Origin: Acidobacteriaceae bacterium
GTDB taxonomy: Bacteria > Acidobacteriota > Terriglobia > Terriglobales > Acidobacteriaceae
NCBI GenBank assembly: GCA_003159975.1
Contig: PLPU01000446.1
Coordinates: forward strand, 7,570-71,569
DNA: 64,000 nt
Reading direction: 5' to 3'
The notes beneath the pieces were generated by a model. The model had not been told where the DNA came from and searched no databases. It worked only from the letters and a program-made list of their open reading frames with translations. Of this stretch, positions 37,914 through 58,768 are shown piece after piece. The translations under genes were made by a program, and so were the position numbers. Position 1 is the stretch's first letter, and the number at the start of each line of letters is the position of its first letter.

Positions 37914-38453
37914 ATGCACTCGTTCGCCTGGTGGCCGACGTTGATTGTTCTCACTGTGGCGACCTTCACTGACTTGCGCAGCCGCCGCATCCCGAATTGG
38001 CTGGTGTTTCCCTTCCTGGTGGCGGGGATACTTGTCTCACCCTGGCGCCAGGACTGGCACGGGAGCAGCCATGGATTTGGCTGGCATGGGGTCGGCCAAT
38101 GTTTTGAAGGTCTTGGTCTTGGCTTGTTGATTTACGGCATACTTTTTTTTGTCGGCGGAATGGGAGCGGGGGACGTCAAGCTGTGCGCCGCAATTGGCGC
38201 GTGGATTGGCCCGGCCCAAATGATTTTTGCGCTGGTGATCACAGCCATGGCAGGAGGAATCATCATTTTGTGCTGGGCGGCAGGCGCGTTTGCAGTTGCC
38301 CAGTTCAAACGAATACGCATTCACTTCTCCGATTCGAAAGAGGGTGAATTGCGAGGCGATCCGGAACCGGTTCTCCCTGGTCTGCTGAAGCGCAAGATGC
38401 CTTACGCTCCGGCCATCGCAGTTGGGACGCTGATTTCGTTCTTTGCACGTTGA
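37914..38453 (+). CDS. cpaA: Prepilin peptidase, A24 family (CpaA/TadV)
   Basis: TDLRSRRIPNWL, GGMGAGDVKL, MPYAPAIAVG. AAGGAG RBS. Confidence 0.9.
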   Translation: MHSFAWWPTLIVLTVATFTDLRSRRIPNWLVFPFLVAGILVSPWRQDWHGSSHGFGWHGVGQCFEGLGLGLLIYGILFFVGGMGAGDVKLCAAIGAWIGPAQMIFALVITAMAGGIIILCWAAGAFAVAQFKRIRIHFSDSKEGELRGDPEPVLPGLLKRKMPYAPAIAVGTLISFFAR

Positions 38454-38470
38454 GTAGGGAAAGGAACATC

Positions 38471-39763
38471 ATGCCCAACGCGCCGAGGTTCGATCAAGGG
38501 GAAGTTAATTCGGAAGTGAAGAATCACGCAAAATGGAGCAGTAATTCAGTGAGTTCAGACTCTTTCCCGTATATCGACTCTCATTCCCCCGATTCCTTCG
38601 GCTCGGATCCCTTGTCGATCGCGTTGGTTGGCCCGGACGAAGAGCGCCGAAAGGCGGCAGCAAGCGCGCTCGCGGAATGCCAGGGAGCGGAAGTTCGCGA
38701 GTTCTCCGCTTATCCCCCCGGCCTGGACGATTTGCCAAGGTTGCTCGAACAGCGCTACGACGTGATTATCATCGACCTCGACAGCAACCCTGAATACGCC
38801 CTTGAGCTTGTGGAGAGCATCTGCGCAAACGGCGCGGTGACGGTGATGGTCTATTCGTCAAAGACCGACCCGGACCTGCTGGTACGTTGCATGCGGGCCG
38901 GCGCCCGCGAGTATCTGACGCTTCCTTTCTCCCACACCATCATGGCCGAGGCGTTGGTTCGCGCCGCTGCGAGGCGCCCCGCCCACCGTCCGTCGCGAAA
39001 AGTCGGCGGCAGGCTGTTGGTATTCTTCGGCGCAAAGGGTGGCACCGGCGTCACCACGATATCCTGCAATTTTGCGGTGGCCCTGGCTCAGGACACTTCC
39101 CAGAGCACCCTGCTGATCGATCTCGACCTCCCGCTGGGAGACGCCGCGCTCAACCTTGGGCTGGTCGCCGACTTCTCGACGATTAACGCTCTTCAGGATT
39201 CCGGCCGTCTGGATGCCAGTTTTCTTAACAAGCTCCTGATCAAGCACAGCTCGGGGCTGTCCGTGCTTGCCGCTCCGGGCAAGTTCCCCAACTTCACGGC
39301 ATCCAACGAGTCCATCGACAAGTTGATTTCGGTTGCGCGTCAGGACTTCGACAACGTGGTGGTCGATGTGGGATCCAGGCTTGATCTGGCGGGAACCGCC
39401 CTGTTCAGAGATGCGAGTACGATCTATCTAGTGACCCAGGCCGGAATTCCCGAACTCCGCAATTCCAATCGCCTGATCAGCCAGTTCTTCCCCTCGGGCG
39501 GCCCTAAAGTGGAGATCGTGATCAACCGCTATCAGCCTCGCGCGCTGGGGGTCGGCGATGAGCATGTTACGAAGGCCCTGACCAGGCCCGCGCAGTGGAA
39601 GATTCCCAATGATTTCGCGGCGGTGCGGCGCATGCAGAACACGGCCACCCCGCTGGTGCTCGAAGATTCGCCCATTTCCCGGCAGATCAAGGAAATGGCG
39701 CGATCCGTTACCGGGCAGCAGGAGGCTCCGGCAAAGAAAAAAGGTTTTAGTCTGTTTGGATGA
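38471..39763 (+). CDS. cpaE: Pilus assembly protein CpaE/TadZ (receiver-like domain + MinD/ParA-like domain)
   Basis: Receiver-like N-domain (CMRAGAREYL), deviant Walker A GAKGGTGVTT, LIDLDL, IPND, C-terminal amphipathic KKGFSLFG. Start uncertain. Confidence 0.85.
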   Translation: MPNAPRFDQGEVNSEVKNHAKWSSNSVSSDSFPYIDSHSPDSFGSDPLSIALVGPDEERRKAAASALAECQGAEVREFSAYPPGLDDLPRLLEQRYDVIIIDLDSNPEYALELVESICANGAVTVMVYSSKTDPDLLVRCMRAGAREYLTLPFSHTIMAEALVRAAARRPAHRPSRKVGGRLLVFFGAKGGTGVTTISCNFAVALAQDTSQSTLLIDLDLPLGDAALNLGLVADFSTINALQDSGRLDASFLNKLLIKHSSGLSVLAAPGKFPNFTASNESIDKLISVARQDFDNVVVDVGSRLDLAGTALFRDASTIYLVTQAGIPELRNSNRLISQFFPSGGPKVEIVINRYQPRALGVGDEHVTKALTRPAQWKIPNDFAAVRRMQNTATPLVLEDSPISRQIKEMARSVTGQQEAPAKKKGFSLFG

Positions 39764-39805: not shown

Positions 39806-41086
39806 TTGGAACTGCTGAATCTGGAAAAATACAAAGCGGAAATACATCGGACCCTGATCTCCAAGCTGGATCTGGAGAAACTGTCGCGGGTCAACACCAG
39901 CCAGGCCCGGCAGGCAGTATCAGGCATTGTCAAAGAGATCATCGCCGACCAGCGGGTTCCCCTGAACTTCGACGAACAGGAAAAGATCCAGGCCGACCTG
40001 CTGGACGAAGTCTTTGGCCTCGGTCCGCTTGAGCCGCTGCTCAGGGACCCGAAGATTTCCGACATCCTGGTCAACGACAAGGATCACGTTTTCGTTGAAA
40101 AGGGTGGACTTCTTATGAAGGTCAACACCACCTTTCGCGACGATCGCCATCTGCTCCAGATCATCGACCGCATCGTTTCGCGCGTCGGCCGCAGAGTGGA
40201 CGAGTCCTCGCCCATGGTCGATGCCCGCCTGCCCGACGGCTCGCGTGTGAACGCCATCATCCCCCCTCTGGCGCTCGACGGCCCCTCCCTGTCCATCCGC
40301 CGCTTCGGCACCGGCCCCATCGCCGCCAATCAGCTGGTGGTCCTCAAGAGCATTTCGGCGGAGATGATGGAGGTGCTTGCCTCCGCGGTGAAAGCCCGCA
40401 TCAGCATCGTCATCTCCGGCGGCACCGGCTCCGGTAAAACCACGCTCCTGAACATTCTTTCCCAGTACATTCCCAACAGCGAGCGCCTGGTCACCATTGA
40501 GGACGCCGCTGAACTCCGGCTGGCCCAGGAAAACATCGTGCGCCTCGAAACCCGGCCGCCCAACATTGAAGGACAGGGCGCCATCCGTCAGCGCCAGTTG
40601 CTGATCAACTGCCTCCGCATGCGTCCCGACCGCATCATCATGGGCGAGATCCGCGGCGAGGAAGCCTTTGACATGTTGCAGGCCATGAATACCGGCCACG
40701 AAGGCTCGATGACCACGATTCACGCCAATACGCCGCGTGACGCGATCTCCCGCCTGGAGTCCATGGTGGCCATGGGCAATATGAATATGCCGGAGAAATC
40801 CGTGCGCCAGCAGATTGCCTCAGCCATCACCATCGTCATTCAGGCCTCGCGCATGAGCGACGGCTCGCGCAAGGTTACCAGCGTCTCCGAAATTACCGGC
40901 ATGGAAGAAAACGTGATCAGCATGCAGGAGATATTTGCCTTCAACAAAAAAGGAATTGGGCCCGACGGCAAGGTCATTGGCGCCTTCCAGCCGACACATA
41001 TCCGTCCCCGCTTCCTCGACAAGCTCCGCGTCGCGGGCATTATCCTGCCCCCAAGCCTGTTCGAGCGCGAAACGCTGGTCAACTAA
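39806..41086 (+). CDS. cpaF: Tad secretion ATPase CpaF/TadA
   Basis: [64 protein letters not shown]. Confidence 0.95.
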
Positions 41087-41107: not shown

Positions 41108-42076
41108 ATGATGTTGATTCTTGTTCTTGTATTTGTCGGAGTGTTTTTGGTTGTTGCATTGGTGGTGAGCGCCTCCATGGGCGGAGACCGGCAGGCAAAG
41201 CAGGTCATCGCCACCCTCGACTCGGCTCTGGCCACCGAAAGCGTGGAAGCGCGCAACGAGATTCTCAATCTTCGCAAGAGCGACAAGCTCAGCACCATTC
41301 CCTGGCTCAATCATCGGCTGCTCAAACTCCAGATCGGACCGCTGCTGCGCGGCCTGCTCGCACAGGCCGATCTCAAGTGGACAGTGGGCGGCATGCTCTC
41401 GATGTGCCTCCTCTGTTTTGTTGTTCCGGCCTACGTGCTCTATTGGCGCACGGGCTCCGTGCCGCTGGCCCTTCTGGTCGGAGCGTTCCTGGGCTTCATG
41501 CCGATCGCCATTGCGATGTTCAAACGCAGTAAACGCTTCGGCAAGTTCGAGAAGGGGCTCCCGGAAGCTCTCGATATGATGGTCAGCGCCCTCCGCGCCG
41601 GACACAGCCTCATCGCCGCGATGGGCCTGGTGGCTCGCGAAAGTCCCGATCCCATCGGGACCGAGTTCAGGATATGTTTCGAAGAGCAAAACTACGGCCT
41701 TGAAATGAAAACCGCCATCGACAACCTGCTCAACCGCATTCCCATGCAGGATCTTAGAATCGTTGCGACTGCGATCATGATCCAAAAGGAGACCGGCGGC
41801 AATCTTGCCGAGGTGCTCGACAAGACCTCCTGGGTGATCCGGGAACGGTTCCGTCTCAAGCGGCAGGTGGCGACGCACACCGCGCAGGGCCGCATGACCG
41901 GGATCGTCCTGACTCTTCTTCCCATTATCCTGGGAATCGCTTTGTATTTCGTGAACCCGACATTGATGAGCATCCTGTGGACGCGACCGATCGGCATCAA
42001 GCTGCTTTGGGTGGCCAGCATCATGATCGTGATCGGCGGCTTGATCATCCGGCACATTGTCAATATGGAGGTCTGA
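41108..42076 (+). CDS. tadB: TadB (T2SS F-family) inner-membrane platform protein
   Basis: LPEALDMMVSALRAGHS, IQKETGGNLAEVL, TAQGR. Follows cpaF. Confidence 0.9.
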   Translation: MMLILVLVFVGVFLVVALVVSASMGGDRQAKQVIATLDSALATESVEARNEILNLRKSDKLSTIPWLNHRLLKLQIGPLLRGLLAQADLKWTVGGMLSMCLLCFVVPAYVLYWRTGSVPLALLVGAFLGFMPIAIAMFKRSKRFGKFEKGLPEALDMMVSALRAGHSLIAAMGLVARESPDPIGTEFRICFEEQNYGLEMKTAIDNLLNRIPMQDLRIVATAIMIQKETGGNLAEVLDKTSWVIRERFRLKRQVATHTAQGRMTGIVLTLLPIILGIALYFVNPTLMSILWTRPIGIKLLWVASIMIVIGGLIIRHIVNMEV

Positions 42077-42085
42077 AGAGGGCTT

Positions 42086-43000
42086 ATGGGCTTTGCGGTG
42101 ATTTCGTTCTTCATCATGTTCCTGCTGATCGCGAGCGGGGGGCTGCTGCTGTTCTATCGCGAAGCCATGCTCCAGCGGATTTCCGAGGTGATCAACCCGC
42201 AGGCTAAGCCGAAAACCCTGTTGAGCACCATTCAACAAACGGGCTTTTCGATTGGCGGCGTGGTGGAGCACTTCGAAAATGTCCTCCCCAAGAGCCAGGC
42301 CGAGGTCGGAGTCGCCATGAAGCGCCTCACCCGAGGCGGCCTCCGCAATGAGTCCGCGGTCAAGGTCTTCTACGGCGCCAAGGTAGTGGTTCCCGTGATT
42401 CTTTGCATCCTCGCCTTAGTCAGCGGACTGGCGCACCTCATCGGCCCCTTCATCTATTTGCTGTGCCTTGGCCTCGGGTTCCTGATCCCGGACTTCTGGC
42501 TGGGCGCGCGGATCAAGGGCCGCCAGAAACGGATGCGGCGAGGGCTGCCGGACGTCCTCGATCTGCTGATCATCTGCGTTGAGGCCGGACTCAGCCTGGA
42601 CCAGGCGACCGCGCGCACTTCAGTTGAATTGGCTCTGGCGCAGCCCGAGTTGTGCGACGAATTGAATATCGTCGTCCTGGAGCAGCGCGCCGGGCGCGCC
42701 CGTTCTGAAGCCTGGAAAAACCTCGCGGAGCGCACCGGCGAGGACAGCATTCGAAGCCTGGTCAACATGCTGGTTCAGTCGGAACAGTTTGGAACCAGCA
42801 TCGCCAAGACATTGCGCGTTCATTCCGATACCCTGAGAACCCAGCGCGTGCAGCAGGTTGAAGAAGCGGCGGCAAAGACCACCATTAAATTGATCTTTCC
42901 GCTTGTCTTTTTCATCTTTCCCTCGCTCTTCCTGGTTACTCTGGGGCCTGCGATCATTATCATGGTCGATTCGTTCTCATCCACGTTCGGGGCTAAGTGA
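42086..43000 (+). CDS. tadC: TadC (T2SS F-family) inner-membrane platform protein
   Basis: LPDVLDLLIICVEAGLSLDQA, QSEQFGTSIAKTLR, KLIFPLVFFIFP. Confidence 0.9.
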   Translation: MGFAVISFFIMFLLIASGGLLLFYREAMLQRISEVINPQAKPKTLLSTIQQTGFSIGGVVEHFENVLPKSQAEVGVAMKRLTRGGLRNESAVKVFYGAKVVVPVILCILALVSGLAHLIGPFIYLLCLGLGFLIPDFWLGARIKGRQKRMRRGLPDVLDLLIICVEAGLSLDQATARTSVELALAQPELCDELNIVVLEQRAGRARSEAWKNLAERTGEDSIRSLVNMLVQSEQFGTSIAKTLRVHSDTLRTQRVQQVEEAAAKTTIKLIFPLVFFIFPSLFLVTLGPAIIIMVDSFSSTFGAK

Positions 43001-43014
43001 AAGGAGTTGGCAGA

Positions 43015-43110
43015 ATGGACAGTACTACCATTATTCAGATTGTCGCCGGCGTCTTATTTGTCGTCGTGTTGATCGTTCTGATTCAGCGCCGTCGCACCCG
43101 CGTTAAATAG
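43015..43110 (+). CDS. 31-aa single-pass membrane micro-protein, copy 1 (MDSTTIIQIVAGVLFVVVLIVLIQRRRTRVK)
   Basis: Translated by hand and absent from the ORF track. AAGGAG RBS. Paralogous to copy 2 with mostly synonymous differences. Confidence 0.85.
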   Translation: MDSTTIIQIVAGVLFVVVLIVLIQRRRTRVK

Positions 43111-43284
43111 CGGGTCTGGCGGAGAAGTTTTCAGCGGCGCCTTGCAAAGGCCAGGGATTCCGCTGACAAGTGCCGCGTTGAACAGAATCGGGAACACCGC
43201 CGCTTTGCCCGGCGCGTGTCGCTCGCGTTCTGTCATGACTCGGAAGCGGAAATAGCAGCTTGTTCACCGAAAGGGGAGTTTTCC

Positions 43285-43380
43285 ATGGATAGCACTACGA
43301 TTATCCAAATCGTCGCCGGAGTGTTGTTTGTCATCGTACTGATCATTCTGATTCAGCGCCGCCGAACCAGGGTCAAGTAG
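43285..43380 (+). CDS. 31-aa single-pass membrane micro-protein, copy 2 (MDSTTIIQIVAGVLFVIVLIILIQRRRTRVK)
   Basis: Translated by hand. AAGGGGAG RBS. 29/31 aa identical to copy 1. Confidence 0.85.
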   Translation: MDSTTIIQIVAGVLFVIVLIILIQRRRTRVK

Positions 43381-43710
43381 TACGGGATTTGCAAAAGCGC
43401 CGGAGGAGCCGCGCAGGTGCGCGGTTGCCCTCGGCCAGATTCGATAGTCCCATCTGCCCAAAATGGCTGCCCACTGGCATTGATTGTCTCTGGGAGATGC
43501 TCTCGGCAGGGGAAGTAGGTGGCGTACGCCCTTGCGCGGCCCAACTGGGCACCGCACCGCGGCCTGCATTGGGTATGCATTTTTAAACCCGGCGATCGCC
43601 GTCTGAGATGCTGGTTCGTAGCTTTCACCGGCTGCACCGATGTCGAATTGACAACTGGGATGCCCTCACAACACCCGGTTGCCGGGTAACCGCCGCGGGC
43701 GGGAGGCTTT

Positions 43711-44679
43711 ATGGATTCACAAAAGGTTTGCGCGTACAACCAAACTCGCGAGTGCTTTCTCGGCCTGGAGGTCACCGCGGCCGACGTTCCCTACGCGAGC
43801 CTCAAAGACATGCTGTTGACGCTTGCATTGCAGTCCGGCGAGGGCCTCTGGATGAATCCGTTCCGGGGCATCCCGGATTCAGGCGTCAGCGCCCCGCTCG
43901 ATCTCATCTATCTGGACGAGGATTGCCGGGTTACCGACCTGGTCGAGTCGTTCCCGACATTTCGCATCACCCCATTGAGCCCCCAGCCCGCCAGCGTCCT
44001 GGCGCTGCCCACCCACTCGATCTATTCGTCCCAGACCCAGACCGGCGATCAGCTCATGCTCTGCCCCGCCGATGAAATGGAGCGCCGCCTCGAAGGATTC
44101 TCCAGTTCCAGCATCACCGGAGCCGTGCAAGGCGCGGTGCTCCTGAGAGAAAAACCGCTGTGGAGCGGTGGCCCGGGAGTCTTGCAGCTAAAGCCCCGCT
44201 CCGACGAAGTCGAGATCGACCTGAATCCCGAAAAGCCGCATGAAATGGAGCTGATCGAACCGGGTATGACCGACGTCAAGCCGCCCAAGCACTGGCTGGA
44301 ACGCTGGTGGTCTCCCGATCCCAGGAAGGCGCCTCGGATACCGGCCTCCGGCCTGGCTGCATATTATTGGACCGGCGCCGCTCCCCAGGCGCGCAACATC
44401 AAGGACATCAGTTCCACCGGCCTCTATGTGGTCACCGAAGAGCGCTGGTACCCCGGCACCCTGGTCCTCATGACCCTGCAACGGACAGACCTCGGAGATG
44501 AATCCGCCGAGCGCTCCATCTCTGTGCATTCCCGCGCGGTCCGCTGGGGAAATGACGGCGTAGGCCTCCAATTCGTGATGAAAAGCTCCCTGACCCCCGA
44601 GCAGGGAAGAAACGCTCTCGTTGACGGGGTCAACAGAAAAGAGCTGGAAAGGTTCCTGAGACTTCTGAAAAAGGGCTGA
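43711..44679 (+). CDS. DUF192-like domain fused to a C-terminal PilZ domain
   Basis: N-domain GEGLWMNP...PLDLIYLD...SVLALP resembles DUF192. C-domain has RKAPR (RxxxR), DISSTG (DxSxxG) and AVRW...GVGLQF. Confidence 0.75.
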   Translation: MDSQKVCAYNQTRECFLGLEVTAADVPYASLKDMLLTLALQSGEGLWMNPFRGIPDSGVSAPLDLIYLDEDCRVTDLVESFPTFRITPLSPQPASVLALPTHSIYSSQTQTGDQLMLCPADEMERRLEGFSSSSITGAVQGAVLLREKPLWSGGPGVLQLKPRSDEVEIDLNPEKPHEMELIEPGMTDVKPPKHWLERWWSPDPRKAPRIPASGLAAYYWTGAAPQARNIKDISSTGLYVVTEERWYPGTLVLMTLQRTDLGDESAERSISVHSRAVRWGNDGVGLQFVMKSSLTPEQGRNALVDGVNRKELERFLRLLKKG

Positions 44680-44829
44680 ATCTCCCACATTCTCGAGAGT
44701 TTGTACCAAAAGTAACCACAATATCAATCTATGGTAATATGGTGTCATTACGATTGGCGGGTCAATTTGACGCTAACGAGGGATTGTGGAGTCGGACTAT
44801 TCAGTGAACAGTAGATGAAGGGGAACAAT

Positions 44830-45402
44830 ATGTCTGCACGAAATGGTTTTGGGCGACAAGCCAGGATCTCCGCTCAAGGGGGTAAGCCTCCCGCGGACTC
44901 CAAAGGTGTGCGTGTCCAGACCCGGTCGCGAGTGGCCAGGGTCGGCGCTTTCCTTCGCTCCCGCAACGAGGGGCAGGCACTGGTTGAGATCGCCATTGCG
45001 CTCCCGTTGTTGCTGATTCTGCTCACGGGCATTTTCACATTCGGAATCGCGTACATCAATGAAATGACACTGCAAAGTGCCGTGGGGTCGGCGGCGCAGT
45101 TGGTCGCGGTCAGCCGCGGGTCCAGTACAGATCCTTGTGCCACAGCGTATGGGGCGCTGAAGGAAGCGGCGCCGAACTTCAACGCAACAAACTTGGGCGC
45201 CGGCCTGACGGTCACGGTCAATGGGACAGCTTCTACAAAAGGAGAAACCGCCTGCGCCACAGACTTGGGGACCACGTATGGTGCGAGCTCGGGGAAATCC
45301 GTCTCGGTTTCCGCGACCTATCCTTGCACTATCGGTGTTTACGGAAGAAACTTTGCACCAACCTGCCAGCTTGCGGCAACAGTATCGGAGTTGGAGTACT
45401 GA
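44830..45402 (+). CDS. tadE: TadE-family minor pilin
   Basis: Prepilin cleavage motif EG/QALVEIAIALPLLLILLTGI. Start uncertain (44815 or 44830). Confidence 0.85.
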   Translation: MSARNGFGRQARISAQGGKPPADSKGVRVQTRSRVARVGAFLRSRNEGQALVEIAIALPLLLILLTGIFTFGIAYINEMTLQSAVGSAAQLVAVSRGSSTDPCATAYGALKEAAPNFNATNLGAGLTVTVNGTASTKGETACATDLGTTYGASSGKSVSVSATYPCTIGVYGRNFAPTCQLAATVSELEY

Positions 45403-45445: not shown

Positions 45446-47287
45446 ATGAAAATGATTTCTAAGTCGTCCTTTACCGAAAAGTTCCTCAATAACCAGAGCG
45501 GGCAGGTGCTTATCTGGGTCGTTTTGGGATTTCTCTCTTTGGTTGCCATGGCCGGCCTCGTTATTGACGGCGGCTTGGCCTATGCCGATAACGCAAACCT
45601 TCAGAACACCGCCAATGCGGCGGCCCTGGCCGCGGCTGGCGAGGTGTACTTGTCTTCAGGAAGCGGCGACGCAACCGCTTTCGGAAACCAGTATAGTGCC
45701 TCGGCCGGAGAAACGAACTCCAGCAGCACGCTGCGGGAAACGGGCACTGTCGCGACCGTCATCACGCCGGTTTGCCTGAACCTGCTCGAGCCGAATGGTG
45801 AAACCTGCGGAACCAGTTCGCCCAAAAACGCTGTCCACGCCTACCAGACGAACACCATCAACACATTCTTCATGAGGTTCTTCGGCGTTCCTACGCTGAC
45901 AGTCAAAGCCGAGGCGACGGCGACGATGAATAGCGTTGCGAATAATTGGAATGTAGCCATCATTGAAGATGCTTCGGGGTCGATGTCCACCACCGACTCC
46001 AACTGTACCGGCAGCCCCACGGAATTCCAGTGCGCGCTGCAGGGAATTCAGACGCTGCTGGGATCCATCAACCCGTGCCAATTTGGCCAGACCACCTGCA
46101 CCAACGCGGACGCAAACTTCCACGTCAGCCTTTGGACATTCCCCAACATCATCACGACGGATCTCCCGGTGGCCAACGCTTGCAGCGGCACAACCTATAC
46201 TGAGCCTTTGCCGTATCAGGTGCTGACCCTTCCAACTCCCGGAGTCACGGGCTACACGCCGCTCACATACGCCTATCCAAACGGGACCAAATGGTCTGCG
46301 AGCTATGAGGTCACATACGGAGCGAGCGATGCGGACGCCAATGGCTTTGTGAGCGACTACTACCAAGCCAACTCCCCATCCACGGGGAATCTGAATCCCA
46401 GTTCCTCCATCGTGAAGGCGGTGGGAAATGGCGGCAACGGAGGAACGGTCGGCTGCTTGCCCGTCTCCCCAAACGGTATTGCTCTGAACGGCGCTACGGG
46501 TACCGGCACTTCCAACTCCATCGTCAACACCGTGAACGTCGGCGAGGGCATCACCTACTACGCGGCCGTACTCTATGCGGCGCAGTCGGCATTGCTCGCC
46601 GAGCAAGCCGTGCCCGGCAATACGAACTCGCAGAACGCGATCATCCTGCTCAGCGACGGACAGGCGAACACCCAGTGGATTTATTTTCCGCAGGGTTCTC
46701 TCTCGCAGACGCCGTCGGCCAACACTTCCACGAAGTCCACAATTGTGACCGGCACGGGATATCCAACCGGGTACGACACGTTGAAAAGCACTCCGAACAC
46801 GAGCGCATATGTAGCTGCCCATTACACGACCCCAACCTCGGAAGCCACCGGGTCGGTCTCCGGTCTGTATCCTGACTTCTTCGATGAATGCCAGCAGGCA
46901 ATTCTGGCTGCCCAGGCCGCCACAAAGGCGGGAACCACGGTCTACGCGGTCGCCTATGGCTCGGAGCAGTCGGGATGCGGCTCCGGAAGCCACGCCGACG
47001 ACTTTACCGATGTCACGATGACGGCCACCGGGTCTAACCTCCTTGTGCCTCTGAACGCATCTTTCTCGTCGGCTTCGGCGCTTACGCCGTGCATCACGAT
47101 GGAGAATATTGCCTCCTCTATTGCCACCGGCTCGAGCACTTTCTACTCCGACTATCTTCAAAGCGGTTCCGGAGTCAGTACCAGTTGCCAGTCGGCGTCG
47201 AATCCGGAAACTCAGATAGCCGACATCTTCTCGGCAATCGCGGCCAGCTTTACCAAGCCGCGGTTGATTCCCAACACTGCCACGTAG
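45446..47287 (+). CDS. tadG: TadG-like minor pilin/adhesin with vWA domain
   Basis: SG/QVLIWV...GLVIDGG...LQNTANAAALAAA Tad N-terminus. MIDAS-like DASGSMS and IILLSDG. Cys- and Ser/Thr-rich. Confidence 0.8.
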   Translation: MKMISKSSFTEKFLNNQSGQVLIWVVLGFLSLVAMAGLVIDGGLAYADNANLQNTANAAALAAAGEVYLSSGSGDATAFGNQYSASAGETNSSSTLRETGTVATVITPVCLNLLEPNGETCGTSSPKNAVHAYQTNTINTFFMRFFGVPTLTVKAEATATMNSVANNWNVAIIEDASGSMSTTDSNCTGSPTEFQCALQGIQTLLGSINPCQFGQTTCTNADANFHVSLWTFPNIITTDLPVANACSGTTYTEPLPYQVLTLPTPGVTGYTPLTYAYPNGTKWSASYEVTYGASDADANGFVSDYYQANSPSTGNLNPSSSIVKAVGNGGNGGTVGCLPVSPNGIALNGATGTGTSNSIVNTVNVGEGITYYAAVLYAAQSALLAEQAVPGNTNSQNAIILLSDGQANTQWIYFPQGSLSQTPSANTSTKSTIVTGTGYPTGYDTLKSTPNTSAYVAAHYTTPTSEATGSVSGLYPDFFDECQQAILAAQAATKAGTTVYAVAYGSEQSGCGSGSHADDFTDVTMTATGSNLLVPLNASFSSASALTPCITMENIASSIATGSSTFYSDYLQSGSGVSTSCQSASNPETQIADIFSAIAASFTKPRLIPNTAT

Positions 47288-49206: not shown

Positions 49207-50058
49207 ATGAACCGAAGACTACTTACGATTCTCCTCCTGGCTTTCGTGATTGCCTCGGCATGCGGCTTCCTCGTATGGCGGCTCGTGGGCAAGCAATTGA
49301 ACCAGGCCAAACCGGTGCCCTCCACGAAAGTGGTTGCGGCTGCCACCGACATCAAACTCGGAGCGGTTCTCACTGCGGCTAACCTGTCCACCATCGAGAT
49401 CAACGGAGCGCTGCCCAAGGGCGTTCTGCTTCGGCCGGAAAATGCGATTGGCCGGGGCGTGATCTCCGACATCTATGCGGGCGAGCCGATTAACGAAAAC
49501 CGCCTTGCCGCGGTTGGTTCAGGCGGTGGATTGGCAGCCACCATTCCTCAGGGGATGCGAGCGACCGCAGTCAAGGTCGACGATGTCGTGGGCGTGGCCG
49601 GCTTCGTCACTCCGGGAATGCGCGTGGACGTTCTCATCTCGGGCAATCCCCCGGGAGATCAGGCTCGCAACCTGGAAACCGGCACATTGACCCAGACGCT
49701 GCTGCAAAACATTCAGGTTTTGTCGGCCGGTCAGGATATTCAAAAGGACGCCGAGGGCAAACCGCATCCGGTTCAAGTCGTTAACCTGCTCGTGACGCCG
49801 GAGCAGGCCGAAACGCTGAGCCTGGCGAGCAACCAGACAAAAATCCAGCTTGTGTTGCGGAACCCGCTCGATACCACGATCAACCAGGTTCCCGGTACCG
49901 CCATGGTCAACCTCTTTGCGGGCCAGGCGCCGCCCAAGGTCGTGAAAGTCGCGGCAAAGCCAAAGGTCGTGAAAGCCCCCCCGGCCTTTTCAATCGAAGT
50001 CATTAACGGTAACAAACGGAGTGAAGCAAAATTCGGTACTCCCGGGGGAACGCAGTGA
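49207..50058 (+). CDS. cpaB: Flp pilus assembly protein CpaB/RcpC
   Basis: SAF domain VVAAATDIKLG, IPQGMRA.AVKVDDVVGVAGF..PG.RVDVL, LLQNIQVL, LVTPEQAE.L, LVLRNP.D. Confidence 0.92.
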   Translation: MNRRLLTILLLAFVIASACGFLVWRLVGKQLNQAKPVPSTKVVAAATDIKLGAVLTAANLSTIEINGALPKGVLLRPENAIGRGVISDIYAGEPINENRLAAVGSGGGLAATIPQGMRATAVKVDDVVGVAGFVTPGMRVDVLISGNPPGDQARNLETGTLTQTLLQNIQVLSAGQDIQKDAEGKPHPVQVVNLLVTPEQAETLSLASNQTKIQLVLRNPLDTTINQVPGTAMVNLFAGQAPPKVVKVAAKPKVVKAPPAFSIEVINGNKRSEAKFGTPGGTQ

Positions 50059-51620
50059 GATCGAAAGCTGGAATCAACATCGCTTCTCTCAGCGCATTGT
50101 GTGTTTTCCTCTGCGCTGTGTCGGGCCTGCAGGCTCAAACTTCTCCGGCACTGGCGCCGGCGGCTCAGGCAGGAGCTTCCCTTCAGGACTCGGCGAATGA
50201 GCTTTCAGTTGCCGTTGGAAAAATGGTACTGGTGGATACCGCTCAGCCGATCGCCCGCGTAGCACTTGGGCTGGCTGAGGTGGCCGAAGTTCAAGCGCTC
50301 AACCCGACCGAGGTCATGGTAACCGGCAAGACTGCTGGAGAAACCAGCCTCATTATCTGGGATGTCAAGGGTGGCCGTCAGTTCTTCAATGTGACGGTGC
50401 GGGCGAGTACGACTGGATTGGACGACAGCCTCGAAGGCATTCGCCGCGAACTTAGAGCCGAGCTCCCCGGACAAGCTCTCAAGGTCACCTCCGACAACGG
50501 CATCATCTTCCTGCGCGGCACGGTCAAGAATCTCAATAACTCCGCGCGCGCGGAAAAGATTGCCTCCACGGGCGGAAAAGTTGTCAACCTGCTCAACGTC
50601 GATGTGCCACCGGCAGACCCGCAAATCCTGCTCAAGGTTCGCTTTGAAAGCGTCGACCGCACCAAAGAGACTCAATTGGGCATCAACCTGTTCAGCAGCG
50701 GGTTCGGAAACACGATCGGCGCAGTCACCACCGGCCAATTCTCGCCGCCAGGGCTTAACCTTCCCACAGGAGGTACTTCGGCGGTGGCGCCGACCATTTC
50801 GAATCAGTTGAATCTGTTTGCGTTCTTGCCCGGCCTGAATCTCGGCGCGACCTTGCAGGCCCTTGAGCAGAGACAGTTGGCTGAAGTTCTTGCGCAGCCC
50901 AATATCATTGCCGCGAACGGCAAGGAAGCCAGCTTCCTGGCCGGCGGAGAGTATCCGTATCCGCAGGTTCAGGGCTCTTCTTCCGCGGTCGGCGGAGCAG
51001 TTACCATCCAGTTCAAGGAGTATGGCGTTCGGCTCAATTTCATTCCGACCATTACTCCCCGCGGAACCATCCGGCTTCAGGTAGCCCCGGAAGTCAGCAC
51101 ACTTGACTTCACCAATGGCATCGAGATATCGGGATTCGATGTGCCCGGCATAGACACCCGGAGGGTGAACACCGAGGTCGAATTGGCAGATGGTCAAAGT
51201 TTTGCTATCGGCGGACTGCTGGACGACACCGACAACGAAACCTTCATGAAAATCCCTTTCCTGGGAGATATTCCGATCCTGGGCAAGTTTTTCCAATCGA
51301 TGCAGAAAACCAAGGTCAGCACTGAGCTGATCGTGATTGTGACGCCGGAGATCGTGACGCCCATCGAAGCCGGGGCAACCCTGCCCGAGCCAAAGTACCC
51401 AGGAAAGTTCCTGCCGCCTAACTCCGGCATCCCAATGAACAATCCTGACGCAAAGACCGCCGCTAACACCCCGGCGCCCGCACCGCCATCCCTTCCCGTC
51501 GAGAAGCTGATTGACAGCATGAGACCCGAGAGGCCGTTGATCATTGAAAGTGGTTCTGGAACCTTTGGCGCCTCATCGGGCAGCGGGGCCAGTGCCGCGT
51601 CGAGCGCTCCGCCGCAGTAG
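50055..51620 (+). CDS. cpaC: Tad secretin CpaC/RcpA
   Basis: Signal peptide, GK.AGETSLIIW, BON-like segment, ASFLAGGEYP, KEYGVRL.F.P, IPFLGDIPILGKFF, ELIVIVTP. Confidence 0.92.
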   Translation: MRSKAGINIASLSALCVFLCAVSGLQAQTSPALAPAAQAGASLQDSANELSVAVGKMVLVDTAQPIARVALGLAEVAEVQALNPTEVMVTGKTAGETSLIIWDVKGGRQFFNVTVRASTTGLDDSLEGIRRELRAELPGQALKVTSDNGIIFLRGTVKNLNNSARAEKIASTGGKVVNLLNVDVPPADPQILLKVRFESVDRTKETQLGINLFSSGFGNTIGAVTTGQFSPPGLNLPTGGTSAVAPTISNQLNLFAFLPGLNLGATLQALEQRQLAEVLAQPNIIAANGKEASFLAGGEYPYPQVQGSSSAVGGAVTIQFKEYGVRLNFIPTITPRGTIRLQVAPEVSTLDFTNGIEISGFDVPGIDTRRVNTEVELADGQSFAIGGLLDDTDNETFMKIPFLGDIPILGKFFQSMQKTKVSTELIVIVTPEIVTPIEAGATLPEPKYPGKFLPPNSGIPMNNPDAKTAANTPAPAPPSLPVEKLIDSMRPERPLIIESGSGTFGASSGSGASAASSAPPQ

Positions 51621-51797: not shown

Positions 51798-52265
51798 ATG
51801 AATCCGCTTACCAGGATAAGAACGGCAGTGCGTGATCGCCTTTCTCGGCGCCGCAACATTCCCCCGGAAGTTCGCCTGCGGGTTTCCAATCTCACGCGCC
51901 ACACTATTCTTGCTACATGCATGGAGGTGGCCGATAGCGGCGAAAAACGCAACAAAGGCCTGCTGGGGCGCAAGCATCTCGCTCCCGGAGAGGGTCTGTG
52001 GATCATCCCGTGCGAGTCCGTGCACACTTTCTTCATGCGGTTTCCCATCGACCTTGTCTATCTGGACCGCAAGAAGCAAATCAGGAAGCTCAGGAGCGCC
52101 GTGCCCGCCTGGCGGCTCTCTGCCTGCCTGTCCGCGCACTCCATCCTGGAGCTTCCCGCCGGCACCATCCGCAATACTCACACCGAATGCGGCGATGCAC
52201 TTGAGTTCTCGCCTGTCCCGTTGCCGAATGAGGGCTCAGCGGGCATGGAGACTCGAGCCGAATAG
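51798..52265 (+). CDS. DUF192 family protein
   Basis: VADS...R.KGLLGR..L.PGEGLWI.PCESVHTFFMRFPIDLVYLD...SILELPAG. Start uncertain. Confidence 0.85.
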   Translation: MNPLTRIRTAVRDRLSRRRNIPPEVRLRVSNLTRHTILATCMEVADSGEKRNKGLLGRKHLAPGEGLWIIPCESVHTFFMRFPIDLVYLDRKKQIRKLRSAVPAWRLSACLSAHSILELPAGTIRNTHTECGDALEFSPVPLPNEGSAGMETRAE

Positions 52266-57753: not shown

Positions 57754-58166
57754 GCCATCTCCTCGATCGCGGCCATCCGCTGATCGGGCTCCCGATTCAA
57801 TATGCTGAGTTGAAGGAAACTTGTCTAGGTACACAATACATGAACAACTGACTGCGTCAAGATTTGCCGCATGGAACCATTGAAAATAAACCTCAAGTTG
57901 CTTGCAGCCTTCAACTCCACTTATACGTCAAAGCAAATGGACTTACTAACTGCCAAATCAACCGGTGTCGATCCGAACCGGCTGCAGAGATTCCGCTATC
58001 CCGCCATCCCACTTTTGCGCCACGGTAATACACTTTTCGGTCATGTATACGAGCCCGGTCTTCCCACCGCATGCTGTATACAAATGTTTACACCCCACTC
58101 GGCCGCACTTTATTGTTGATTCCGCCAAGTTATTGAGTTATAAGAAGAAATGTCCAGCTTCCAGAT

Positions 58167-58182
58167 TGGCACACCACTTGCT
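58167..58182 (+). promoter_or_regulatory. Sigma54 -24/-12 promoter of flp
   Basis: TGGCACACCACTTGCT, 55 nt upstream of the flp ATG. Confidence 0.8.
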
Positions 58183-58236
58183 GTATTGAGGGTGTTCCGG
58201 TCTATAGCCGGAAAAAATCAACCTAGGGAGATTCAA

Positions 58237-58431
58237 ATGAACAATCTGCTTCTGAAGATGTATGTTAAGTTCCAGGACCTGGCGAGCCGTGAAGAAGGTC
58301 AGGATCTCGTGGAATATGCGTTGGTCGTTGCTCTCATCGCTTTCGGCGCAGTTGCCGGCATGAACGCTCTGGCCAAGGGCCTCAACACCGCCTTCAACAC
58401 CATCAGCACCACGCTGTCCACCTCGGTCTAG
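58237..58431 (+). CDS. flp: Flp major pilin 1
   Basis: MNNLL...REEG/QDLVEYALVVALIA Flp motif. AGGGAG RBS. Start is ATG 58237. Confidence 0.92.
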   Translation: MNNLLLKMYVKFQDLASREEGQDLVEYALVVALIAFGAVAGMNALAKGLNTAFNTISTTLSTSV

Positions 58432-58570: not shown

Positions 58571-58768
58571 ATGCGGCCTGAATACCTGAAACTTCTCCTT
58601 TGCCTGCGCCGCCTGATTACACTCGACCACGGGCAAGATCTGGTCGAATACGCACTGGTTGTCGCTTTGATCGCATTCGCTGCGACCGCCAGCATGAAAG
58701 CCTTAGCCACCGGTATTAGCACCGCGTTCGACACGTTGAGCGTCGAGCTTCATAACAACGCGATCTAA
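58571..58768 (+). CDS. flp: Flp pilin 2
   Basis: DHG/QDLVEYALVVALIAF Flp motif. GAGG RBS. Confidence 0.88.
   Translation: MRPEYLKLLLCLRRLITLDHGQDLVEYALVVALIAFAATASMKALATGISTAFDTLSVELHNNAI

Follow-up and report, generated by a model that had tools for sequence, protein, structure and literature searches.

The stretch of DNA analysed here (hereafter, the window) comprises 64,000 nt of contig PLPU01000446.1 from the Acidobacteriaceae bacterium assembly GCA_003159975.1 and harbours a complete Tad (Flp pilus) locus, in which two tandem micro-ORFs are embedded (Table 1). The product of copy 1 consists of a short polar N-tail, a single hydrophobic helix and a tail terminating in LIQRRRTRVK, and its ATG is located 14 nt past the stop codon of tadC, in tight packing within the operon. 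In the translation of the downstream fusion of DUF192-like and PilZ domains the motifs RKAPR and DISSTG were recognised, the PilZ part thus retaining RxxxR and DxSxxG. The whole genome yielded two matches to PF02643 (DUF192), both inside this Tad locus. The flp genes are situated 15 kb from the tadZABC operon, both Flp proteins carry Ser/Thr-rich C-termini, and five GT87-like genes together with one GT2 gene surround the pair.

Table 1. Features of the Tad locus and of the two micro-ORFs, with positions counted from the first nucleotide of the window.
Feature	Position	Strand	Details
cpaA, prepilin peptidase	37914-38453		
tadZ/cpaE	38450-39763		
tadA	39806-41086		
tadB, second platform protein	41108-42076	+	same operon; PF00482, E 1.6e-17
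tadC, T2SSF-domain platform protein	42086-43000	+	PF00482, E 2.9e-15
Shine-Dalgarno GGAG, copy 1	43003-43006	+	8 nt 5' of ATG
Micro-protein, copy 1	43015-43110	+	31 aa, ATG start, TAG stop
Shine-Dalgarno GGAG, copy 2	43275-43278	+	6 nt 5' of ATG
Micro-protein, copy 2	43285-43380	+	31 aa, ATG start, TAG stop
GC-rich stem-loop without U-tract	43399-43435	+	MFE fold; 19 nt past the copy 2 stop
DUF192-like/PilZ fusion, cytoplasmic	43711-44679	+	PF07238, E 5.8e-5; PF02643, E 0.0048
tadE	44815-45402		
tadG	45446-47287		
rcpC	49207-50058		
Secretin	50055-51620		
Second DUF192	about 51921-52208		
flp gene 1	58150-58431		canonical Flp, G/QDLVEY site
flp gene 2	58571-58768		canonical Flp, G/QDLVEY site

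The original prediction, made from the sequence of the window, described two near-identical membrane micro-proteins with strong ribosome-binding sites and a signature of purifying selection. Both starts indeed combine an ATG with a GGAG motif, and two V/I positions are the sole residue differences between the peptides. A recount of the codons returned the same 16 synonymous changes and two V/I substitutions that had been counted by hand; the 19 base differences are distributed as 4, 0 and 15 over codon positions 1, 2 and 3, and the NG86 estimates are dN 0.045 and dS 1.65 (dN/dS 0.027). The flanks had been described as dissimilar, and in ungapped comparison of 60 nt on either side 16/60 upstream and 13/60 downstream positions were identical, which corresponds to chance level.

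The spacer of 177 nt between the copies showed no structure when folded (z +0.8). The 70 nt following the stop of copy 2 gave a folding z of -2.6, and across 173 family copies the post-stop region averaged z -1.5, with 36% of values below -2. The stem-loop downstream of copy 2 is a possible 3' stabiliser or attenuator. Scanning of positions 42800-43900 for intrinsic terminators revealed no canonical terminator near the micro-ORFs, and a sigma-70 promoter scan of the same interval returned nothing above expectation.

Pooling of all loci gave 174 distinct copies of the micro-protein, of which 162 have exactly 31 residues (range 29-39 aa). An ATG start is present in 170 of these copies, and a strong and exposed Shine-Dalgarno site precedes 173 of them at a distance of 5-16 nt, against a background of 10%. 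In a set of 31 copies from 20 genomes, all having 31 codons, an ATG and a strong Shine-Dalgarno site, the median pairwise dN/dS was 0.14, so that the selection on the peptide proposed for the window pair is also seen across the family, and the column entropy was 0.24 at codon position 2 versus 1.24 at position 3. The Arg codons of the tail are invariant as residues yet synonymously variable, hence it is the peptide, rather than the RNA, that is constrained. Taken together, the codon patterns identify the micro-ORFs as real protein-coding genes.

The genes had also been called unannotated, a description which is not generally valid, since the exact peptides are called on 115 (copy 1) and 149 (copy 2) public contigs. 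In relatives they bear the name 'hypothetical protein'. As the exact peptides sit in public protein collections, the genes should be regarded as uncharacterised rather than uncalled. Searches of Pfam, NCBIfam, PHROGs, PDB sequences and Rfam gave no match above threshold for the micro-protein, and the ESM Atlas returned only unnamed clusters of 31-aa proteins, with 639, 76 and 583 members. In around half of the best database matches, which measure 40-90 aa, the family segment occupies the C-terminal end, therefore gene callers appear to choose often an upstream in-frame start. Entries of 175-245 aa, considered as candidate fusions, turned out to be partial, frameshifted TadC sequences reading into the peptide, and no natural fusion of the micro-protein to TadC, TadB or DUF192 was found among the long database matches. 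Literature searches brought up no account of a small protein encoded behind tadC and none that connects DUF192 with pili.

A resemblance to a stand-alone sorting-signal-like anchor, also put forward in the original prediction, persists at the level of composition and does not extend further. Two sorting-signal profiles scored below their cut-offs (TIGR01167, 14.4 bits vs 15.9; PVV-CTERM, 13.4 vs 27), no LPXTG or PEP motif is present, and instead of a signal attached to secreted cargo we observed a stand-alone gene with its own Shine-Dalgarno site and start in 174 copies.

The closest loci belong to Terracidiphilus and to Acidobacteriaceae MAGs of peat, bog and fen. Using tblastn, the peptide was found in 31 of 36 same-genus genomes, as 1-5 tandem copies, and the five genomes without it also lacked an orthologous tadC. 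In all relatives' loci (19/19) the micro-protein gene is placed between tadC and the DUF192/PilZ gene; among the best 80 public Terracidiphilus/Acidobacteriaceae loci, 78 have tadC upstream and DUF192-PilZ downstream, the other two being contig ends. tadC was directly upstream in 100/100 complete loci inspected, and the micro-protein gene starts 14-180 nt after it, nearly always within the Tad cluster. More distant members are found in a second locus type, with the gene order rcpC-secretin-tadZ-tadA-tadB-tadC-peptide-DUF192-tadG.

A family profile was built from both locus types and searched in a 301-genome sample of Terriglobia (Acidobacteriota), where it matched 133 genomes, representing 68/131 genera and at least nine families. 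Among about 360 genomes from the rest of the phylum, only two gave a match. The TadC profile, applied to the same 301 genomes at a cut-off of E <= 1e-40, matched 175 of them, and 131/132 peptide-positive genomes were TadC-positive (the window's own genome excluded, tables compared by hand), figures which partly reflect vertical inheritance, as synteny within one class does and as the sampled genomes are kin. The sole TadC-negative exception (G665, locus L187) carries the gene between cpaA and DUF192, within a Tad cluster. In eight other families 20/20 sampled matches lie directly after tadC; the linkage to tadC, a check of which was suggested with the original prediction, holds even where TadC is only 37-50% identical to that of the window. 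In one genome (G443, locus L147) approximately 5 kb separate the gene from the upstream tadC-DUF192 pair, and it follows the gene of a Pro/Gly-rich protein of 625 aa. In locus L145 (G338), a look-alike of 39 aa runs convergently to an orphan tadA; its homology is uncertain, and it was left out of the supporting cases. A profile search of the whole library returned 808 cluster representatives at 50% identity.

The arrangement itself is wider than the recognisable sequence family, since micro-ORFs also occur in profile-negative families. Seven loci (L188-L194) were read from family f100 and part of f5, which are profile-negative and TadC-positive, and in all seven a micro-ORF of some 30-33 aa stands just behind tadC, preceded by a Shine-Dalgarno site and encoding a TM segment and a basic tail; it begins 39 nt past the tadC stop in L189 and 17 nt past it in L192, where a second copy is present at +243. 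Either these micro-ORFs are homologues that have diverged very far, or they are analogues that arose by convergence. On the other hand, seven Acidobacteriaceae genomes (L158-L164) have DUF192 immediately after tadC, without room for a micro-protein gene, and contain no copy elsewhere in the genome; some Tad loci of this type, at least, can therefore do without the micro-protein. In loci without the peptide, no TM segment fused to DUF192 was found. It should be added that in one of the seven (L159) a look-alike ORF of 25 aa, whose product combines a TM segment with a basic tail, lies 9 nt after tadC. The seven loci represent natural 'deletion' cases, which may be compared for compensating changes in TadC.

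Regarding the peptide itself, the consensus begins with Met-Asp and three variable polar residues, often Thr, which are followed by two aliphatic residues and Arg8 (Gln8 in the lineage of the window), a 15-residue aliphatic stretch with an invariant Gly12 and a basic cluster from Arg25-Arg26 onwards. The hydrophobic core spans 15-19 residues, beginning 5-8 residues past Met1. Among the 31 copies from 20 genomes, the invariant residues (G12, L14, L22 and Q24-R25-R26-R27) are all in the helix and the basic tail. Across the pooled copies, positions 3-5 vary (S/T/N/Q, T/V/A and T/M/S/L, respectively). The N side has a net charge of 0 to +1 and the C side of about +4; because of this charge balance (positive-inside rule), the micro-protein is predicted to insert N-out/C-in, without a signal peptide, as a single-pass protein of the inner membrane.

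Variability over positions 6-24 peaks at 100 degrees per residue, a periodicity of marginal significance (permutation p 0.03 with 61 representatives and 0.07 with all distinct peptides). The conserved face of the helix comprises R8 (R/Q8), G12, F15, L19 and L22, and the variable face positions 6, 9, 13, 17, 20, 21 and 24. This one-sided conservation is suggestive of packing against another helix, without being decisive. The tail is near-invariant within a lineage and switches type between lineages: QRRRTRVK is found in the lineage of the window, YRRK... and QRRKKK... in the second locus type, WRRRR..EE in family f3, MRRKSRNAEE in f5 and RRKKKASKDDW in f101, f104, f105 and f84. Such a pattern would fit a tail that makes its contact in the cytoplasm and evolves together with a partner particular to the lineage.

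As for the copy number, duplicates from the same genome share 0.826 nucleotide identity (dN 0.05, dS 0.70), and between genomes same-position and cross-position copies share 0.758 and 0.752, respectively. Since copies within a genome are more alike than copies at the same position, the duplicates must turn over or become homogenised, and they resemble a means of raising dosage more than paralogues that have diverged. The idea of old, fixed paralogues each with a role of its own was considered and rejected, same-position copies (0.758) being no closer than cross-position ones (0.752).

It is also conceivable that the gene is no Tad component at all. It would then encode a small hydrophobic peptide of toxin or stress type, or else a leader (uORF) whose sole function is to regulate the next gene, and would simply have been inherited within the operon. 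Its size and composition are like those of type I toxins, sub-threshold matches to holin and anchor profiles were obtained, although these are compositional, and stable hairpins often follow the stop. However, type I toxins have a locus of their own, operon-independent and with an antisense RNA, and the gene is almost never found away from the Tad cluster, its Shine-Dalgarno site is strong and exposed, and Rfam searching returned no match near threshold and no antisense RNA family. A leader peptide is contradicted by selection that spans the whole peptide, including one helix face, rather than a few codons, and by the geometry to the next gene, which is not fixed, there being 1-5 copies and a distance that ranges from 0 to 330 nt, and the next gene itself differing between lineages. 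We hence consider this explanation very unlikely.

The same applies, in a still stricter wording, to the proposal of the original prediction that the periplasmic Ser/Thr N-tail serves as an acceptor for GT-C (GT87-like) glycosyltransferases encoded near flp, which we judge extremely unlikely. With an N-out topology the tail would face the periplasm, the site of GT-C action; Thr occupies position 5 in 99/133 distinct peptides, and the window does contain the five GT87-like genes. Nevertheless, positions 3-5 are the least conserved of the peptide and in some members lack Ser/Thr, the loci read tie the family to tadC rather than to GT87 genes, and the Ser/Thr-rich C-termini of the Flp proteins offer more obvious acceptors.

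Flp/Fap pilins (PF04964) are likewise tiny proteins with a hydrophobic helix, encoded in tandem copies in Tad loci. The micro-protein differs from them by the absence of a leader and of the G/XXXXEY site, and by an opposite distribution of charge. No Glu or Tyr follows G12, and the prepilin motif, said in the original prediction to be missing, is indeed present in neither peptide. PF04964 did not match the micro-protein even at E 10, and when the family alignment was compared with the window's Flp by hhalign, the probability was 0.05%. Moreover, the locus encodes two canonical Flp proteins with the G/QDLVEY site, therefore the role of pilin is already filled. A different relation to pilins can be envisaged, in which the micro-protein would not belong to the platform and would act as an abundant membrane partner that handles mature Flp pilins or pseudopilins, its membrane-proximal arginines pairing, for instance, with the buried Glu5 of pilins in the inner-membrane pool. 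Tandem amplification (1-5 genes, each with a strong Shine-Dalgarno site) and turnover are more reminiscent of pilin than of machine genes, the Flp pilins of the window carry the VEY motif and, in the tad loci of actinobacteria, the place behind tadC is taken by flp. This speaks for such handling; linkage to tadC, rather than to flp some 15 kb away, and the lack of profile similarity to Flp speak against it, and we regard it as a live alternative, albeit a distinctly unlikely one.

Another live alternative would make the micro-protein a membrane tether or adaptor, whose basic tail recruits the cytoplasmic DUF192 protein, here the DUF192-PilZ fusion, a likely c-di-GMP receptor, to the platform or the membrane. 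In the rcpC-first locus type, DUF192 begins 0-26 nt past the peptide stop in 8/10 loci, closer than tadC, and the stand-alone DUF192 proteins (about 115-130 aa) have neither a signal peptide nor a TM segment. The confinement of both DUF192 matches of the genome to the Tad locus is in line with this view, as is the tail, the most conserved part within a lineage: RRRTRV(K/R) accompanies the PilZ fusion and other tails the stand-alone DUF192, although this link may represent a single evolutionary event. Against recruitment, 7/20 loci of other families have no DUF192 within 3 kb, therefore DUF192 is a frequent associate and tadC the universal one; furthermore, the seven gene-less loci described above keep tadC-DUF192 without the peptide, and no peptide-DUF192 fusion occurs among the database matches. 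On balance, tethering of DUF192 appears rather unlikely as the primary role.

What the data show is a gene under peptide-level purifying selection, maintained class-wide beside tadC and co-occurring with it. We propose that the micro-proteins probably serve the Tad (Flp, type IVc) pilus machine of Terriglobia as an accessory component specific to this lineage, encoded in the window as a paralogous pair and residing in the inner membrane with a single pass, a reading suggested by sequence comparison and held with moderate confidence. The undescribed small Tad accessory subunit or regulator anticipated by the original prediction accordingly stands as the best-supported reading, drawn from synteny and co-occurrence only and of somewhat better than even probability.

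The micro-proteins would be translated from the cpaA-tadZ-tadA-tadB-tadC transcript and would insert without a signal peptide, with the acidic/polar N-tail in the periplasm and the basic tail in the cytoplasm, as the charge balance suggests. The helix face formed by R/Q8, G12, F15, L19 and L22 may then pack on a membrane helix, most probably of the TadB/TadC platform, as conservation and linkage would imply; packing on the platform is favoured because tadC is the universal neighbour. The basic tail would be positioned at the cytoplasmic surface of the membrane, where the platform meets TadA, TadZ and the DUF192-PilZ protein, and may there stabilise or tune the platform. The presence of 1-5 tandem genes, each with a strong ribosome-binding site, suggests that several copies may be needed per machine. 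Co-folding of TadB, TadC and the micro-protein gave an ipSAE of 0.00 in two runs without controls, on alignments of 50-59 rows, a result that weighs on neither side as regards binding. As a more tentative extension, to which we assign a low probability, several copies of the micro-protein might ring TadB/TadC with their tails docking the DUF192-PilZ c-di-GMP receptor, in this way linking the second messenger to extension or retraction of the pilus. If this were true, the micro-protein would be a stoichiometric part of the machine and the first subunit of such small size to be described among type IV filament machines.

The proposed component may be compared with known small membrane proteins, none of which is homologous to it. 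KdpF of KdpABC, AcrZ of AcrB and CydX of cytochrome bd are likewise shorter than 50 residues, with one TM helix, are encoded in the operon of the complex they serve, act as accessory and not catalytic parts and have often been missed or left unnamed. The micro-protein shares these attributes, with its 29-39 residues, one TM helix, position within the Tad operon and co-occurrence with TadC (131/132 genomes). There is no sequence relation, none of the three comes from a type IV filament machine, and binding to the complex, shown for all three, is inferred for the micro-protein. It should be added that KdpF, AcrZ and CydX are single-copy, in contrast to the 1-5 tandem copies seen here, and such a multi-copy dosage is unusual and counts against the subunit reading.

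PilN, the bitopic alignment protein of type IVa pili, binds PilM through a short motif that is conserved and cytoplasmic. It similarly combines a short conserved cytoplasmic peptide with one TM helix and thus offers a model for a tether. PilN differs, however, in being N-in, in having a folded periplasmic domain and a length of about 200 aa, and is not a homologue; in the micro-protein, the cytoplasmic motif is C-terminal and almost nothing is periplasmic. The major coat protein of the filamentous phage Pf3, in turn, also has no signal peptide, a short acidic N-tail out, one helix and a basic C-tail in, and a high gene dosage or expression, a likeness suggestive of YidC-type insertion. It is nonetheless 44 aa long, phage-encoded and DNA-binding, whereas the micro-protein is chromosomal and inherited with tadC; no phage genes were seen near the micro-ORFs, and no PHROG match rose above noise.

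Tad pili drive adhesion and biofilm formation, and the TadB/TadC platform in the inner membrane is, to our knowledge, the least understood part of the Tad machine. Here a gene has been kept beside tadC through the history of the class and is better conserved than the genes around it, which hints at a part or regulator still missing from the picture of this machine and overlooked at 31 codons. The family has 808 clusters and no Pfam or NCBIfam model, and its definition would help to annotate thousands of acidobacterial genomes better. Should the micro-protein touch the platform or recruit DUF192-PilZ, it would provide a handle on the role of DUF192 and on a c-di-GMP route to Tad machines.
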